From Candidatus Latescibacterota bacterium (GTDB lineage: Bacteria > Latescibacterota > UBA2968 > GCA-2709665), in assembly GCA_963662665.2 (NCBI GenBank), contig CAXXJS010000010.1, positions 224,001-288,000 of the forward strand: a stretch of 64,000 nucleotides of DNA, given 5' to 3'. A program made the position numbers and the translations under genes. The notes beneath the pieces were generated by a model. The model was not told the origin of the DNA and ran no database searches. It was given only the letters and a program-made list of their open reading frames with translations. This document shows positions 10,136-43,999 of the stretch, piece after piece (positions within the stretch are counted from its first letter, which is position 1; each line of letters begins with the position of its first letter).

Positions 10136-10470
10136 GGCGGGCGGGGTGGGATGTGTATGTGCTGACGCTTGTTCAGTTTGCGAAATCTTACATGGATTCA
10201 AGTATTCCGGCGCGAGTTCATCGCGATAGCAGGAGAGTGTACTGCCCGGCGAGACGGATGAATGAAAGATGCTCGGACCACCTTCTACGCCGCAGGAGAT
10301 GCATCGCCAGGCTCCTGGATTTTCGGAGACTGGCACGCATTTTGCGGCCACAAACCCCAAGTACGTCCAGGAGTTTCGGTTTCGCGGCGGAATCTCAGAC
10401 CGGAGGATTTACGATCGGGCAGCCTCGCGAAAAACGCCATTGGGCGCCGCATACTGAAATTGGGTCTTTG

Positions 10471-11418
10471 GCCCCAATTCGAAAAAACAGCAACTCGGCA
10501 ACGAGATGAAAACCACTGAAACGGGGCGTAACGGTCGTCAAAAAGGACATTCTTTCAGTTCACGTCCAGTGACATGGTGTATCCTGTTAATCAGAAGTTA
10601 AATCGCCTTTATCTACTTGCCTAAATTCGGTTTTACTTCCCCGAAGAAGTAGAGTCGAGATGTGGCGCGGTGGTTTAGGAGTGGCCTGTCTGTTCCCGCC
10701 CCTTTCGTCTGGCGGTGCCTCAATAGCCCCTCCCTGCTCCGTTTCCACATCCCGCTCGTCGAACCGGACGTGCGGAGTTACCGCATCCGGCTCTCCGACG
10801 GACATCGCCTTCAGGTACACACTGCCCGATCTGCCCGGACAGCTTCACCTGAAACCTTAGCTTGATCTGGAGTCGCCTCGTCTTATTCTGGAGGAGGTTA
10901 TAGGCTTGCGCCACTCTCCCGACAGTTGTCCCCTTCACAAGCACATCCGAAGTCAGGCCCCTTTCCTCCGCCGGCGTTACCCGGCATCACAGGTACTACG
11001 AGCCTGTCCGCCACCCCATACGGCCCGGCCTGGCCCTCACGGGCTTCCGGTTGGTGGCTCTCCACCACCGCTGGGGCTTCCCGTGTTGCGTCGGATCTCC
11101 TTGTATGCGTGCCTCCGCCATTACCCCGGCGGGACCGTTGGGTGCTCTCGTTGCCTGCTTCCCCAACGACGGCGGCCTTCCCCGTTCGCAAGCCGGGTCG
11201 GCTCCCGCATTACCCTTTTCGAGGCCTGCTCAGCGTTTACTCACGTTTCAGCCCACATACTCGCCGAGTCGCCTGGCGACCCTCTACACCGGAGGCTTCG
11301 GAGATGTCGTTACCTACGTCTCCGCTCCGATTGCTTCCGACTGTGGCAACATCTGTCGGGTGGGACTCTCACCCACTGAAGTTCCGCGCCTTTTCACGGC
11401 GCACTTGCGAATCAAGGT
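10471..11418 (+). mobile_element. MITE family 1, copy A (192 bp: 10471-10648 plus 11405-11418), interrupted by a group II intron
   Basis: Colinear with copies at 23130, 35352 and 40551; joining ...CCGAAGAA|TTGCGAATCAAGGT restores the end seen intact at 35521-35542. Confidence 0.9.
10649..11404 (-). ncRNA. ORF-less group II intron (IIB-like), 756 nt
   Basis: Starts GTGCG and ends CTCTAC; domain V GAGCCGGATGCGGTAACTCCGCACGTCCGGTTC (10793-10761) with AGC triad and AC bulge; long domain VI; domain III-like TAGTACC...GGGTAAC...GGA..AAAGGGGC; EBS1 loop TTGCGAA complementary to the exon end TTCGCAA; no RT ORF. Confidence 0.93.
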
Positions 11419-11506
11419 TAGCCTCTGTCATTATTGCATTTCCCATTGACAACGCGCGATTTTTACTGTTGTTTTAATCAATCGGCGCGAGAAGGGAAAA
11501 ACCGGA

Positions 11507-11872
11507 GTGAAGTGGGTGTCCATCTGGAGCGTCAAGGAAACTGACAGGGTTTTGTTTGGAGTTGTGTCGGTCCTGGTGTTCTTCATTGGTGCGTGGAATC
11601 TGGTTTCCAGAAAGAGCTGGTCCAGCCTTTATTTTTCCGAAGACTTAGTCATTTTGGGCGCCTGGTCGGTCACTGTCGCCTACTTCACAATAGGGGCCAT
11701 TGACATCATGGTTATGATCTTTGGGACTATGACTGAACTTGTGGCCGGATGGTATAAAAACAGGGTTCTCAAAAATGCGCGCGAAGAGATCCGGGAACAG
11801 GTTCGAGAGGAAGTCCTTCAGGAACTTCGGGAGGCCCGGCAGGACAAGACTGATGCGGGTGAAGTAAATTAA
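11507..11872 (+). CDS. Hypothetical membrane protein with two TM segments and a charged helical tail
   Basis: 121-aa ORF, purine-rich sequence before GTG, two hydrophobic stretches, AREEIREQVREEVLQELREAR tail. Confidence 0.65.
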   Translation: MKWVSIWSVKETDRVLFGVVSVLVFFIGAWNLVSRKSWSSLYFSEDLVILGAWSVTVAYFTIGAIDIMVMIFGTMTELVAGWYKNRVLKNAREEIREQVREEVLQELREARQDKTDAGEVN

Positions 11873-11911
11873 ACATCCTGTTCCAATAAACCTGCTCAAC
11901 TGTAACCTCTG

Positions 11912-12032
11912 GTGTTCCGTCCCAGGAATACCTCACCATTCGGACGCCGATTCATCCCGTCTTGCTACGTTGCGTTGCGAGACGGGCGACTCGACGGCCG
12001 AATTCAGGCAACTTATTTCCGGGACAGACCAC
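11912..12032 (+). mobile_element. MITE family 2 (IS630-like ends), copy 1
   Basis: Imperfect TIRs GTGTTCCGTCCCAGGAATA...TATTTCCGGGACAGACCAC followed by TA; homologous to 36872-36987 and 46458-46611. Confidence 0.82.
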
Positions 12033-12034
12033 TA

Positions 12035-13256
12035 GTACCCTTTGACGGCTAAAGCACGGCGTAGTCTGGATACAGCTTTCTCAGTTTGATGCGAGCATCG
12101 TCGGTCGTGAACCGCCAATGGACGGCCTTGCTATTGTTGTTGCGATCATTCGCCCAGGCGGAAGTCTGCTCTTTGAGTGAATCGATATCGGGGATGCGCT
12201 GCTTCAAGCATTGGTTGCTCAAGACACTCAGTTCGATCTCGGCGATGTTGAGCCAACTCCCGTGTTTGGGCGTGTAGTGGATTTCGAGACGCCTGGCCAG
12301 ACGGCGAGCTTCTTCGGGTGAGAACGCCTCGTAGAGTGCCGCGGGCGTGTGCGTGTTGAGGTTATCACACACCAGGACGACGGTTTCGGCTTCACGGTAG
12401 TCCGTATCCAGAAGCTCCTTGATCTCCTGGGCCCAGTCCAGTGCGGTCTTGCGTTGTCTTACACGGACCTTGCGCCAGCACGAAAGCGGTTCAGTGAACA
12501 TGAAGTTCACGGCGGTTCCGTTACGTTCATACTCGTAGTCGTAGCGTTCAGGTTTGCCCGGACGTGTAGTGACCGGAACACGCGTCTCCTTGACCAACTG
12601 AACCGGGTGTTCGTCCATATTGACAACGGGCCTCAGGGCGTCGTACGGCCGCTGATAGACATCCAGGATATCCTCCATCGCGGCGACAAACGCGGCGTTT
12701 TGCTTGGGCGGAATCACCCAGCACGTTCTCAGGTGAGGCCTAAGTTTGTTTTTTTAAGCGTTCGCTGCACCGTCCGGTATGAGATGCTATCGACGATCTC
12801 CAGGGCTACGAGCTCATCGGCCAAAAGCTTCAGCGTCCACCGCTTACGTCCCGTTGGAGGTTCACTGCAAGCCAACGCGATCAATCGGGCTTCCTTAGCA
12901 CCATCCAGCTTTCTTTCGGTGGGAGGATGGGCGCGCTTCTTTCGCTCAAGGGCCGAATCCAGGCCCTCCAACACAAAACGCTTCCGGATGCCCTCAACCG
13001 TAGACCGATTGCACGAAAAGGCCTCCGTGATCTGCCGATCCAGCCAGGCCGGACCCTCTGCATCGGCCTTGAGAAGCACATGCGCGTGCCTGATTCGGTA
13101 CGCTTGCGTCTTGCCTTTGCTTACCAGATCCTGCAGCCGTTCCCGTTCTTCGGGACTCAGACGTACGACGTATTTCTTCGGCATGCCGATGGCTCCTTCG
13201 TCTTCAGGGGAGACATCGAACTATAAGCACGCCCAGTCTTAGAAGTCAATAGGTAC
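12035..13256 (-). mobile_element. IS630 family insertion sequence (two-ORF, frameshifting type)
   Basis: TIRs GTACCCTTTGAC / GTACCTATTGAC, flanked by TA on both sides (12033-12034 and 13257-13258). Confidence 0.92.
12049..13184 (-). CDS. IS630 transposase, OrfA (13184-12729) and OrfB joined by -1 frameshift
   Basis: HTH OrfA; DDE OrfB with MDE, CDNLNTH and HYTPKHGSWLNIAEIE; A7 slippery run at 12755-12749 gives LKKNKLRPHLRTCWVIPP in the -1 frame. Confidence 0.9.
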
Positions 13257-14344
13257 TAGTGTCTTGTCCCATGAATTAGTTCAAAAAGTCTAGTAATCTT
13301 GTCAAGGATCGATTCTGCGGTGGCGGTCCAGACGAACGGTTGTGAGTTGGTGTTGTAATGGTTAGTGAAATCCTGAATGTTGGCGATGAGGTCTTTCACC
13401 TTCTTGAAGGTCCCGCGTCGGATGGCTTTCTGGGTAATGATACCGAACCAGATCTCGACTTGGTTGAGCCAAGACGCGTAGGTCGGTGTGTAGTGAACGT
13501 GATATCGGGGCCTGGCTGCGATCCAGCGTTTGATTTTTTCGTGTTTGTGCGTGGCGTAGTTGTCGACGACGAGATGAATGTCAAGGTCCTTCGGGACGTT
13601 TTGGTCGATATATTTGAGGAATTGCAGGAATTCCTGGTGTCGATGTCGGGGTTTGCATTGGGCCAGCACCTTGCCGGAAGCGACCTCTAGTGCGGCGAAC
13701 AAGGTCGTGGTGCCGTGCCGGATATAATTGTGGGTCACCCCTTCCACATAGCCCAACCCCAAAGGCAATATCGGCTGCGTTCGTTCCAATGCCTGGATCT
13801 GGCTCTTTTCGTCAACGCATAATACCATCGCGTTGTCGGGAGGGTTCAGATACAGGCCGACAATGTCACGTACCTTCTCGACAAAGAACGGATCATTGGA
13901 CAGCTTGAAGTGTTTTTGCCGGTGCGGCTGTAGACCAAACGCTTTCCACACGCGCTGAACCGTAGACTTGGACAGTTGCGTCTGGGCCGCCAGAGAGCGG
14001 CAGGTCCAATGGGTGGCTCCCGACGGCTTGTCTTTGAGCGTTGTATAAATCAGCGCGGCGATGCGCTCATCGCTGATCGACCGGGGCCCCCCGGGGCGCA
14101 ATTCATCATAAAGCCCCATCAGACCTTGTTCTAAAAACCGACGGCGCCACTTCCCGACTGTGGCTCCCGACAGACCAAGCTGTCGTCCAATCTGCTGATT
14201 CGACAGCCCTTGATCACTCATCAGAACGATCTTCGCCCGACGTACATGACTGTGCGACATGCTTCTTGAACGGGAAATCGTTTCCAACTGTGCCCGAACC
14301 TCATCCCCAATACTCAGTGGCGCTAACGGACGTCCCCTGGCCAT
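13256..14344 (-). CDS. IS630 family transposase (single ORF)
   Basis: CVDEKSQIQAL, YIRHGTTTLFAAL, VVDNYATHK, YTPTYASWLNQVE; ends LIHGTRH* inside the terminal repeat. Confidence 0.95.
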   Translation of the reverse strand: MARGRPLAPLSIGDEVRAQLETISRSRSMSHSHVRRAKIVLMSDQGLSNQQIGRQLGLSGATVGKWRRRFLEQGLMGLYDELRPGGPRSISDERIAALIYTTLKDKPSGATHWTCRSLAAQTQLSKSTVQRVWKAFGLQPHRQKHFKLSNDPFFVEKVRDIVGLYLNPPDNAMVLCVDEKSQIQALERTQPILPLGLGYVEGVTHNYIRHGTTTLFAALEVASGKVLAQCKPRHRHQEFLQFLKYIDQNVPKDLDIHLVVDNYATHKHEKIKRWIAARPRYHVHYTPTYASWLNQVEIWFGIITQKAIRRGTFKKVKDLIANIQDFTNHYNTNSQPFVWTATAESILDKITRLFELIHGTRH

Positions 14345-22979: not shown

Positions 22980-23129
22980 CTTTCCAAACCTCCATTGGTT
23001 GAAATTCTCACCAAACACACATCGAGCGCTATTTTAAACCTATATCGGCCGGATCACGGACCCTGTAATCGGGCGCCCTATCGTCGGTACGCCGGCCGAC
23101 CCGCCCCGGGCCGGACGGCGACGAAGTAA

Positions 23130-23322
23130 ACCTTGATACGTAATTCTTCGGGGAAGTAATACCGAATATATGTAAGTGGATAAAGGCGATTTAACTTCTG
23201 ATTACCAGGATACACCAGGTCACTGGACGTGAACTGAAAGAATGTCCTTTTTGCCGACCGTTACGCCCCGTTTCAGGGGTTTTCGTCGCGTCGCCGAGTT
23301 GCTGTTTTTTTCGGATTGGGGT
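23130..23322 (-). mobile_element. MITE family 1, copy B (193 bp)
   Basis: Reverse-complement homologue of copies A and C; ends ACCTTGATACGTAA...TTCGGATTGGGGT; flanked by TAA on both sides. Confidence 0.9.
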
Positions 23323-35351: not shown

Positions 35352-35542
35352 GCCCCAATTAGAAAAAAAGCAACTCGGCAACGCGACGAAAACCCCTGAA
35401 GCGGGGCGTAACGGTCGTCAAAAAGGATATTCTTTCAGTTCACGTCCAGTGACCTGGTGTATCCCGGTAATCAGCCGTTAAATCTCCTTTATCCACTTGC
35501 ATATCTTCGGTTTTACTTCCCCGAAGAATTTCGAATCAAGGT
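35352..35542 (+). mobile_element. MITE family 1, copy C (191 bp, intron-free)
   Basis: GCCCCAATTAGAAA...CCGAAGAATTTCGAATCAAGGT, colinear with copy A. Confidence 0.9.
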
Positions 35543-41853: not shown

Positions 41854-41927
41854 TGGCTGCCCCCCAGGGATTCGAACCCCGATACTACGGTCCAGAGCCG
41901 CATGTCTTGCCATTAGACGAGGGGGCA
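41854..41927 (-). tRNA. tRNA-Gln (CTG)
   Basis: TGCCCCC acceptor stem, CT-CTG-GA anticodon loop, GTTCGAATC T-loop, encoded CCA. Confidence 0.95.
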
Positions 41928-41954
41928 GCCATAACTGTTGCGCGTATCGACAGC

Positions 41955-43394
41955 TTATTGGGTGACGGTCTCCTTTCGTCCCAGCCTTTCAAGGCCCGTC
42001 TTCATTCGCCGGATGCAGGTCTCACGACCCAGAACGGCCATCATTTCGAACAACCCCGGACCCATGTTCGTTCCGCTGAGTACGAGGCGCGTGGGGTGGA
42101 TCAGTTTGCCGGCAGAGATGCCCAGTTGCCCCGAGAGCGTCCTTGTGGCGCCTTCGATTGACCGCTCGTCGAATGCAGTCAGCGCCTCCAGCCTCTCAAT
42201 CAGTGTCTCCAGCCGGGAGGGGCTGTCGACCTTCCAGTGTTTCTTCCGGGCTTTTTCGTCGTAAGCTTCGGGATCGTTGAAAAAGTATTCAAAATTCAGA
42301 AATTCCCGTACGGTCTGAATGCGCGGCTGCATCAGTTCCACCGCCCCAGGCAGGCTCTCGCGTCTGCCTTCCGCATCGTCCGCCGTTATCCATCCCGCGT
42401 CAATCCACAGACTCAGCGCCGCCCGCAGGAGTTCGGAAACCGGCTTCAACCTCAGGTGTTCGCCGTTCAGCCACACCAGCTTCCGCTCGTCGAACACCGC
42501 GTTTTTCCTGAGCATTCCTTCAACGGTAAACGCCTCAACCAATTCATCCTTTGTGAAAACCTCCCGGTCGTCCCCTGGAGACCAGCCCTGAAGCGCCAGA
42601 AAGTTGAACAACGCTTCGGGCAGGATGCCCTGCTGCCGGTATTCAGTGACGGTTGTCGCGCCAAGGCGCTTGCTCAGCTTTCTCCCATCCGGCCCCATCA
42701 GCAGCGTTGTGTGTGCGTATGCCGGGACGGTCCATCCAAGCGCATGAAAGAGCATCACCTGCTTGGGCGCATTGGAGAGGTGTTCCGCTCCCCGGATCAC
42801 CAGCGTCACGCCCAGATCGTGGTCGTCAACAACCACCGCCAGGTGGTAGATGGGCGATCCGTCCGCACGCAGAATGATGAAGTCCTCAACCTCGCGGTTG
42901 TCCCATCGCTGCGTGCCCCTGACGGGATCCTGCCAGATCGTCTCGCCTTCCGGAACCCGGAAGCGAACCGTCTTCGGCCGGCCCTCGGCTTCAAGAGCCG
43001 CACATTGTTGTGGTGTGATGTCCCGGTTATACCTGACACGACGCCCCTCAGCCTGCGCCCGCTGCTGCAGGGCTCGCACTTCCTCCGGGGTTTCGTAGGC
43101 GTAGTACGCGTGCCCGGACTCCGCAAGCCGGTCTACCGCCTCCCGGTGCGCCCGCGCGTTGCGGGATTGAATAATCGCCTCGCCGTCGAACGCGATACCC
43201 AGCCATTCCAGGCTTTCAAGGATCGTGTTCAGTGAGGCTTCGGTAGACCGTTCCCGGTCTGTATCCTCAACACGGAGATGCAGCCGGCCGCCATAGCGCC
43301 GCACATACAGATAGTTGAACAGCGCCGTTCGGGCGTTCCCTACGTGGAACCCGCCCGTGGGCGAAGGTGCGAATCGTAATACCGTTTCGGACAT
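41955..43394 (-). CDS. gltX: Glutamate--tRNA ligase
   Basis: RFAPSPTG..HVGNARTALFN, VVDDH, IRG.EH..N, KLSKR. Confidence 0.96.
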   Translation of the reverse strand: MSETVLRFAPSPTGGFHVGNARTALFNYLYVRRYGGRLHLRVEDTDRERSTEASLNTILESLEWLGIAFDGEAIIQSRNARAHREAVDRLAESGHAYYAYETPEEVRALQQRAQAEGRRVRYNRDITPQQCAALEAEGRPKTVRFRVPEGETIWQDPVRGTQRWDNREVEDFIILRADGSPIYHLAVVVDDHDLGVTLVIRGAEHLSNAPKQVMLFHALGWTVPAYAHTTLLMGPDGRKLSKRLGATTVTEYRQQGILPEALFNFLALQGWSPGDDREVFTKDELVEAFTVEGMLRKNAVFDERKLVWLNGEHLRLKPVSELLRAALSLWIDAGWITADDAEGRRESLPGAVELMQPRIQTVREFLNFEYFFNDPEAYDEKARKKHWKVDSPSRLETLIERLEALTAFDERSIEGATRTLSGQLGISAGKLIHPTRLVLSGTNMGPGLFEMMAVLGRETCIRRMKTGLERLGRKETVTQ

Positions 43395-43657
43395 TGAGAG
43401 TCAGTTGGAAGCGAGTCACGCAGGACGCAAGTAGCTAACAGCGATATCGGCGCCGCAATGTCATACTCAATCGCGACTCGCAATTCGCCCGCGTGTGGGC
43501 GTTGACTAAGCAGCGATCAGCATTCAGTGGACTGCAATAGCGGAATGACACAAAAGGCCGGAAGCAATATAGCAGGAGACATAAAAAAAACGACCGGGGC
43601 GATGGGTGTGGTATTCTTCCGTCTTACTTCTTCCTTCTCACCGCCTCTTTGTTTTTT

Positions 43658-43750
<93 letters not shown>

Positions 43751-43774
43751 GAATTGTAAGTTCAAAGGAAGTTA

Positions 43775-43803
43775 ATACTACCAAAACGGGCCTCTGAAAT
43801 CAA
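43775..43803 (-). promoter_or_regulatory. Sigma70 promoter upstream of tRNA-Ser(GCT) and gltX
   Basis: Minus strand TTGATT-N17-TAGTAT. Confidence 0.5.
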
Positions 43804-43910
43804 GGAAAACCTGAAGGATTCAGGCCGGACGCGCCGGCACGCGGAAATGCCGCCGCCTCACGTTCCCAACAGCTTTGCCGAGAGACAGCCCTCGGGTCAT
43901 CCGGGGTTTC

Positions 43911-43999
43911 TGGCGGTGGGGGTGGGATTCGAACCCACGGATCCGGTTAGGATCAACGGTTTTCAAGACCGCCACGTTCGACCACTCCGTCACCCCACC
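43911..43999 (-). tRNA. tRNA-Ser (TGA)
   Basis: GGTGGGG acceptor stem, CT-TGA-AA loop, long variable arm, GTTCGAATC, CCA. Confidence 0.95.

Follow-up and report, generated by a model that had tools for sequence, protein, structure and literature searches.

Some group II introns home into other selfish elements: RmInt1 homes into ISRm2011-2, and Dai and Zimmerly reportedly described in 2003 archaeal introns without an open reading frame (ORF) that home into intron ORFs. Class C (IIC) introns insert beside terminator hairpins or integron attC sites. To our knowledge, Thermosynechococcus alone has ORF-less introns that multiply with the help of a shared "driver" protein, and this arrangement is frequently cited as a model for the origin of spliceosomal introns and of their common splicing machinery. 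According to Mohr, Ghanem and Lambowitz (2010; PMC2882425), 17 ORF-less introns of Thermosynechococcus elongatus stem from one deletion, diverged into families and are mobilized in trans by driver intron-encoded proteins (IEPs). A review (PMC4424553) describes ORF-less bacterial introns as rare and nearly always found beside a related IEP-encoding intron, and such derivatives as probably short-lived. Here we analyze a 756-nt ORF-less group II intron found in a window of 64,000 nt (the whole stretch of DNA that was analyzed; C10:224001-288000) of G000, a Candidatus Latescibacterota assembly of 4.86 Mb in 66 contigs, 92% complete and with 58.8% G+C. The intron lies in the tip of a MITE (miniature inverted-repeat transposable element), which we call MITE1. 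From sequence comparison, we consider it very probable that it retrohomes into MITE1 tips, trans-complemented by a cognate IEP. Like RmInt1 and the archaeal ORF-less introns, it would have another selfish element as a harmless, multicopy homing site. The hosts of these introns are autonomous insertion sequences (IS) or introns, as opposed to the present pair, in which neither partner is autonomous and the terminal repeat itself serves as target. The intron in its MITE looks like a parasite of a parasite.

The element at 10649-11404 is a structurally complete but ORF-less, non-autonomous group II intron, with the following parts:

10649-11404, minus strand: ORF-less group II intron, 756 nt, from 5' GTGCGCC to 3' GACTCTAC
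11241-11378, minus strand: part of domain I, matching Rfam RF02003 (group-II-D1D4-4; 89.7 bits, cut-off 49, E 2e-18)
11212-11216, minus strand: tentative exon-binding site 2 (EBS2), AGGGT, intron nt 189-193, pairing by eye with ACCTT at -14 to -10 of the exon
11185-11191, minus strand: loop of exon-binding site 1 (EBS1), TTGCGAA, intron nt 214-220, exactly complementary to TTCGCAA in the 5' exon
10800-10954, minus strand: domain IV remnant, 155 nt, in place of a 1376-nt ORF-bearing domain IV
10894-10922, minus strand: 29-nt block within this remnant, resembling the ribosome-binding site and start-codon region of the full-length intron
10761-10793, minus strand: domain V (GAGCCGGATGCGG...CCGCACGTCCGGTTC), from the RF00029 alignment and the consensus fold
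10649-10758, minus strand: domain VI, with a ~75-nt insertion in its distal part
10655, minus strand: presumed branch point, a bulged A 7 nt from the 3' end, placed from the pairing

The termini, GTGCG (11404-11400) and CTAC (10652-10649), fit the group II 5' GUGYG and 3' AY and are invariant in 17 relatives. RF02003 was the sole intron match in a gathering-threshold Rfam scan of the whole window. In a permissive scan of 10300-11600, RF00029 (domains V/VI) reached 35.7 bits at 10795-10649(-), below its cut-off of 40 (E 5e-05), because a long insertion in domain VI depresses the score; domain V itself aligns cleanly. The consensus fold of 17 ORF-less relatives comprises domains I-VI, with an invariant domain V, a structured remnant and 8 compensatory pairs. 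The domain V hairpin has the AGC triad and the 2-nt bulge, and its helix does not vary among the 17 sequences. In domain VI, GAGCGGGATGTGG and CCACATCTCG-A-CTC can pair with the A at -7 bulged; RNAalifold pairs the last bases otherwise. An earlier note on this DNA had claimed a complete 756-nt ribozyme without a reverse transcriptase (RT) ORF; the RF02003 score and the longest minus-strand ORF within the intron, of 97 aa, confirm it. A TPP riboswitch match inside the intron (19.9 bits vs a cut-off of 54.3, E 0.43) was attributed to chance. A promoter and terminator scan of 10300-12100 returned 0 promoter-like and 0 terminator-like sites, and the possibility that the MITE carries a terminator downstream of the intron was dropped.

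The host repeat, MITE1, is a dispersed, non-coding element of ~190 nt that runs from CCTTGATTCG to CGAATTGGGG, with short and imperfect terminal inverted repeats (CCTTGATTCG vs CCCCAATTCG, 7/10). The intron-removed locus matched a repeat of ~195 nt, in 80 BLAST segments of the genome. Of the 66 copies that could be aligned over 150 nt or more, 57 are empty, 8 contain the 756-nt intron and 1 contains a 1975-nt intron. The 4 bases outside MITE1 are mostly CTAA/TTAA. Since they are the same on both sides in 41 of 66 copies (~15 expected by chance), they represent a target duplication: MITE1 has genuinely inserted, duplicating 4 bp at a YTAR-type site, with duplication of TA alone (2 bp) as a formal alternative. 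As the earlier note had counted, the window contains four copies, copy A with the intron and three without:

11405-11417, minus strand: left tip of copy A of MITE1 (CCTTGATTCGCAA), separated from the rest by the intron
11405-11411, minus strand: intron-binding site 1 (IBS1)
11414-11418, minus strand: tentative intron-binding site 2 (IBS2), pairing with the tentative EBS2
10472-10648, minus strand: rest of MITE1 copy A, ending ...CGAATTGGGG
11418-11421, minus strand: target-site duplication CTAA, left
10468-10471, minus strand: target-site duplication, degenerate copy CCAA, right
23129-23321, plus strand: MITE1 copy without intron, site TACGTAA
35352-35549, minus strand: MITE1 copy without intron, site TTCGAAA
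40550-40749, plus strand: MITE1 copy without intron, site CTCGAAA

The flanks of the window intron (...CTAACCTTGATTCGCAA before it and TTCTTCGGGG... after it) show no duplication around it, as expected for reverse splicing and as had been claimed. The empty MITE1 copy near 35528 reads GATTCGAAA followed by TTCTTCGG and is 1 base off the occupied site. The insertion had also been placed 14 nt from the MITE end; this count stands if the last A of the duplication is included, the intron being 13 nt inside the element proper. We looked for an autonomous IS sharing the MITE1 tips and found none: 23 tip-motif matches lie outside the blast-defined copies and 0 are IS ends, a weak negative in an assembly that is 92% complete. 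Two unusual MITE1 structures were seen elsewhere in G000. At C24:7977-8270, two MITE1 copies lie in tandem, the first truncated, beside a full-length (1975-nt) intron. At C23:45040, the left and right tips of MITE1 enclose a perfect hairpin of 21 nt, which is identical to intron nt 1-19 followed by AC; this 55-nt element may be the collapsed remnant of an intron in a MITE.

Blastn of the 756-nt intron against G000 showed 8 complete copies, 99.87-100% identical (5 identical, 2 sharing G671C and 1 with T239C), as well as 2 distant fragments. Following the earlier proposal to examine the flanks of all intron copies genome-wide, we found 8/8 ORF-less copies at the identical MITE1 position, with the same junctions (TAACCTTGATTCGC(A/T)A before the intron, TT(C/T)TTC after it), while their flanks upstream of TAA are unrelated. 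The EBS1 loop, closed by GACCCG/CGGGG, pairs with the 5' exon at 7/7 bases at 6 sites and at 6/7 at the other 2. In full-length relatives (L004-L011 and L015), this loop is likewise complementary to the final 6-7 bases of the exon (G-U allowed), and by eye it fits the exon in 22 of the 29 ORF-less loci of sister genomes, 6 pairing poorly and 1 having lost the loop. These pairings indicate that the loop at intron nt 214-220 is the true EBS1. The EBS2 pairing holds by eye for the G000, G006 and G001-B lineages and is not clear for others; the EBS2-like loop varies among lineages together with EBS1. Occupancy of the MITE1 copies by the 756-nt intron was then scored according to their tip (-7 to -1):

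TTCGCAA: 17 copies, 6 occupied
TTCGCTA: 3 copies, 2 occupied
any other tip: 45 copies, 0 occupied

Fitting tips are thus occupied in 8/20 cases vs 0/45 for the others (Fisher p = 2.5e-5; the 66th copy, with TTCGATT and a full-length intron, was excluded from the test). G000 has 17 occurrences of the exact 14-mer ACCTTGATTCGCAA, all of them MITE1 tips, with MITE sequence following in 11 cases and the intron in 6. The suggestion that MITE1 forms a renewable pool of homing sites is in keeping with this distribution, all 17 exact 14-nt targets being MITE1 ends and 11 being still vacant.

The 8 introns share place, orientation and element, and the 13-nt tip and the target duplication are still present outside the intron. 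Both features would be expected if a MITE had taken the intron once and the MITE transposase had then copied the MITE and intron as a composite of ~950 nt. However, the 8 host MITEs are 87.7-96.4% identical pairwise (median 92.1), whereas their introns, 99.87-100% identical, differ at 2 positions in all. The occupied copies are scattered on the tree of the 66 MITE1 copies; for 6/8 hosts the nearest or tied-nearest relative is an empty copy, and the host MITE on C40 is 100% identical to an empty copy on C10. Since near-identical introns sit in diverged and scattered hosts, the intron entered existing MITE copies one by one, and the insertions are independent. Composite transposition, which would also have to account for an occupancy that tracks EBS1 complementarity (8/20 vs 0/45), was rejected on these grounds and we regard it as extremely improbable. 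No composite of MITE and intron appears to have been copied as a unit, which is at most consistent with the idea that the insertion immobilizes its host MITE.

In G006, the closest relative, the flanks of the orthologous locus (L130, G006:C58; window ~10460-11425) align well and the locus has neither MITE1 nor the intron; the arrival at the window locus is therefore younger than the split between G000 and G006. At the same TTAG, the G006 locus carries another MITE of ~130 nt, with 17-nt inverted ends (CAGCCCGTTGAAAAAGT...) and TTAG on both sides, so that two MITE families used one target site in two species.

The earlier note had asked for an RT-encoding intron with near-identical RNA, and G000 contains 3 cognate copies of one. 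This 1975-nt intron is 95% identical to the ORF-less intron over nt 1-450 and 96% over nt 606-756, and has 1376 nt in place of the 155-nt domain IV, with an intact 441-aa ORF in 3/3 copies. The 441-aa protein combines RVT_1 with the group II maturase domain GIIM and matches TIGR04416 (NCBIfam) at 354 bits, for a cut-off of 300; it stops shortly past the maturase domain and has no endonuclease (En) domain. When the whole G000 genome was searched with the PF08388 (GIIM) family, only the three 1975-nt loci matched. Among solved structures, the best relatives of this IEP are IIC RTs (6ar1, 186 bits; 7uim, 175 bits), nearer than LtrA. As in the closest precedent, the TeI3 (ORF-less) and TeI4 (ORF-containing) introns of T. 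elongatus, multiple ORF-less copies and a related IEP-encoding intron share one genome (here 8 and 3); unlike in that system (PMC2882425), the Latescibacterota IEP has no En domain. With class C introns the system shares an IEP that lacks En and a tendency to use DNA that is repeated, intergenic and structured. In contrast to these, the ribozyme (~600 nt when domain IV is left out) has an EBS1 of 7 nt and a loop resembling EBS2, and its site is defined by sequence. The usual features of a class C intron, a small ribozyme lacking EBS2 and a position just behind a hairpin, do not match the ribozyme of ~600 nt with its variable EBS2-like loop, nor is there a terminator-like site in 10300-12100.

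The three full-length copies occupy related sites. The C61 copy is at the same MITE1 position, in a tip ending ATT. The C24 copy is in a MITE1 variant, on the opposite strand, where an internal arm (CGAATCAAGG) recreates CCTTGATTCG. The C16 copy is in unique DNA after a tRNA-like 3' end, between TAACTTCGGATTCGGAA and TTCC, which resembles a MITE tip. The full-length copies are 99% identical save five clustered substitutions at intron nt 212-219.

Taken together, these findings support the interpretation in the earlier note, and we propose the following mechanism. The target would be the outermost 14 nt of MITE1, i.e. the last base of the target duplication and the first 13 nt of the element, with EBS1 complementary to the last 7 nt (TTCGCAA). 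The intron, which is predicted to splice, would enter by reverse splicing and without duplication, using the 441-aa IEP of the 1975-nt intron supplied in trans. As this protein has no endonuclease domain, cDNA synthesis would presumably be primed at replication forks. MITE1 has ~66 intergenic copies with conserved tips and would therefore offer many harmless, self-renewing homing sites. Of the 20 copies that end in three bases compatible with EBS1, the intron has taken 8.

To place the intron in its lineage, 31 genomes (30 relatives and G000) were searched at the DNA level. Intron matches were found in 13 of the 14 other genomes of the genus and in 0/12 genomes of the neighbouring family. The nearest full-length introns, with IEPs 86-90% identical, are in chromosomes of metagenome-assembled genomes labelled Candidatus Latescibacterota. 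ORF-less versions that span all 756 nt, including the domain IV remnant, are present in G001 (at least 15 copies), G009 (at least 6), G007 (3) and G006 (1, 97% identical), and near-complete ones in G003, G005 and G011. A domain IV remnant of 152-155 nt is present in 21/21 distinct ORF-less sequences from 8 genomes (median 91% identical). This common remnant argues for a single loss of the RT gene in the ORF-less lineage, before the species of this Latescibacterota genus diverged. The TeI3 copies likewise trace to a single ORF deletion (PMC2882425), with experimental proof in one cyanobacterial species, whereas the present introns belong to an uncultivated genus known here from sequence alone. 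The tree built from the ribozyme parts unites the ORF-less sequences in what is essentially a single group; the G000 full-length introns fall within this group, beside the G000 ORF-less ones (support 0.97), which suggests exchange between autonomous and non-autonomous forms. The lineages differ in EBS1 and in host repeat:

G009 (L119 and L120): EBS1 TGACGAT; MITE1, same position, tip ending TCA
G006: EBS1 TTTCGAA; sequence that resembles the other MITE1 tip (TTAGCCTCAATTCGAAA)
G001, family B (7 copies, L104-L110): EBS1 TGTCAGC; second MITE of ~165 nt, inverted ends TATTACsrGGAGCA
G001 and G009, family A: EBS1 CATGGAT; a third repeat, rich in T, mostly at its edge; some ectopic sites have nothing but IBS1 in common

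In G001 family B, 6/7 copies have the whole ~165-nt element and 1 a partial one, and the intron is ~55 nt from the right end. Two further features were observed among the ORF-less introns of sister genomes. Palindromes of 27-33 nt (GCCTGCCTG...CAGGCAGG) are found in three different peripheral loops, in L115 (G011), L116 and L119-L121 (G009), and look like a further small invading repeat. In L112 (G003:C52), the 5' flank is the 3' end of another intron copy (...CCACATCCCTACTCTAC followed by GTGCGC), forming a head-to-tail pair at a contig end.

Several observations weigh against retrohoming helped by the resident IEP. The EBS1 loops of the full-length copies misfit their own exons and fit each other's (L001 on C61, L002 on C24 and L003 on C16): C61 and C24 have TTTTGGA after TTCGATT, C16 has AATCGAA after TTCGGAA, and the swapped fit is perfect one way and includes three G-U pairs the other way. 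We suspect a mis-phasing of the 99%-identical 2-kb repeats in the assembly, with recombination as the alternative, and the misfit leaves the splicing competence of the full-length copies uncertain. The ORF-less copies are outside this problem, their EBS1 loops fitting their own exons. Moreover, 11/17 perfect targets are vacant, so that homing is inefficient or recent. Local GC skew (±20 kb), taken as a replication-strand test, showed no bias, being positive at 4 and negative at 4 of the 8 occupied sites (5 and 7 at the 12 vacant TTCGCAA/TTCGCTA sites) and probably reflects gene orientation. The relation between the remnant and the full-length domain IV comes down to one 29-nt block, 22/29 identical and at the same offset, and this similarity to what is presumably the protein-binding region of the full-length intron is statistically weak, ~2.3 standard deviations above shuffles; the 3' half of the 155-nt remnant gave nothing above shuffles against the full-length domain IV. 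By comparison, ORF remnants are recognizable on both sides of the deletion in TeI3/TeI4 (PMC2882425) and are not in the Latescibacterota intron. Contigs of four sequencing runs (X1, X7, X8 and X9) contained none that bridges the intron, no spliced form and no empty-site joint 10648/11405 (GATTCGCAA joined to TTCTTCGG), but these contigs are assembled, broken at repeats and in no case on record as RNA, and are uninformative on expression or polymorphism. Finally, repeat collapse or polishing in the assembly could inflate the identity of the intron copies.

Sister genome G009 adds to these difficulties. Although it is a single contig, 99% complete, with at least 6 ORF-less copies (L116-L121 and L135), it has no group II RT or maturase: a protein search for the IEP gave no match at E <= 1e-30, and a TIGR04416 search only a 72-bit partial match to a 522-aa RT without maturase domain, whose best weak family is Drt4. 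Two of its copies, L116 and L118, are identical and have unrelated flanks. Therefore a resident helper is not always present; in G009 it was either recently lost or is supplied from elsewhere.

With the mispaired EBS1 loops of the full-length introns, the vacant 11 of 17 perfect sites and the G009 copies without a group II RT, one could regard the copies as immobile relics of a past spread, now stranded without a functional helper, and their identity as an assembly effect. The review cited above (PMC4424553) also holds that ORF-less introns have generally lost retromobility. However, the three IEP ORFs are intact, the introns differ at 2 positions in all vs 4-12% for their host MITEs, and the G006 comparison makes the window insertion younger than the species split. 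In addition, the contigs of one independent run include long intron pieces free of errors, several-fold deeper than the flanks. This agrees with many identical copies, even if depth does not measure copy number. On balance, we judge the relic explanation unlikely.

The identical L116 and L118 in different flanks, in a genome whose only RT is the unrelated 522-aa one, would rather suggest that the intron is mobile with a helper other than the resident 1975-nt intron: a plasmid, a phage, a co-resident strain, or an unrelated RT copying the reverse-spliced ribozyme. The 92% completeness of the G000 assembly leaves room for such a helper. Against it, G000 has no maturase genes other than those in the cognate intron (ribozyme 95-96% identical), and in G001, where ORF-less copies number at least 15, 10 cognate IEP genes are intact. 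We consider a foreign helper very unlikely in G000 and favor mobilization of the ORF-less intron by the cognate IEP.

The neighborhood of the intron contains two IS630-family transposase loci (DDE_3 and HTH_32 domains), at 12032-13250(-) and 13256-14344(-), just upstream and on the same strand. The first locus, broken into two ORFs, has 100%-identical copies of its part 12032-12700 on C5, C30 and C40. This adjoining element was considered as the autonomous partner of MITE1 and discarded, as no MITE1 tip-motif match lies on its contig. Farther away, at 41857-43999(-), the window has three tRNA genes, two of them with long variable arms (Rfam RF00005, 52-59 bits).

The targets distinguish this system from those described. 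TeI3/TeI4 insert into other introns (twintrons) and scattered sites (PMC2882425), whereas 8/8 of the present copies are in the tip of one MITE family, and those of a sister species in another MITE. The "MITEtron" of Candidatus Thiomargarita nelsonii (PMC4853749) is similar in that an intron and a MITE are nested in an uncultivated bacterium; in that case, a group I intron contains the MITE, at a single described locus (dsrA), whereas here it is MITEs that contain a group II intron, repeatedly and at a defined base. In a limited search of the open-access literature, covering passages of PMC9769881, PMC11602168 and PMC4853749 among others, no publication turned up that describes a group II intron within a MITE or homing into MITE ends.

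Our results point to a second, independent case of ORF-less intron proliferation through a shared protein, in an uncultivated phylum, with additional features: a genus-wide non-autonomous lineage, retargeting by small EBS1 changes, and a niche in the conserved tip of a MITE. Two non-autonomous elements would be stacked that move in different ways, one by DNA transposition and the other by retrohoming. MITE tips may provide such an intron with an ideal refuge, being multicopy, intergenic, kept constant by the transposase and continually renewed. The EBS1/target pairs across lineages form a natural series for studying retargeting, and G009, with introns and no RT, raises the question of how such elements persist. 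A broader proposition, on which we are evenly divided, is that the ORF-less lineage maintains itself as a hyperparasite of non-autonomous transposons, by changing EBS1/EBS2 and hopping between the termini of MITE families, that it outnumbers its RT-encoding relatives, and that it persists even in the complete G009 genome, as identical copies at several loci and with no group II RT present. If this is true, non-autonomous group II introns can be evolutionarily stable in bacteria, contrary to the view of such derivatives as rare and short-lived expressed in the review (PMC4424553).

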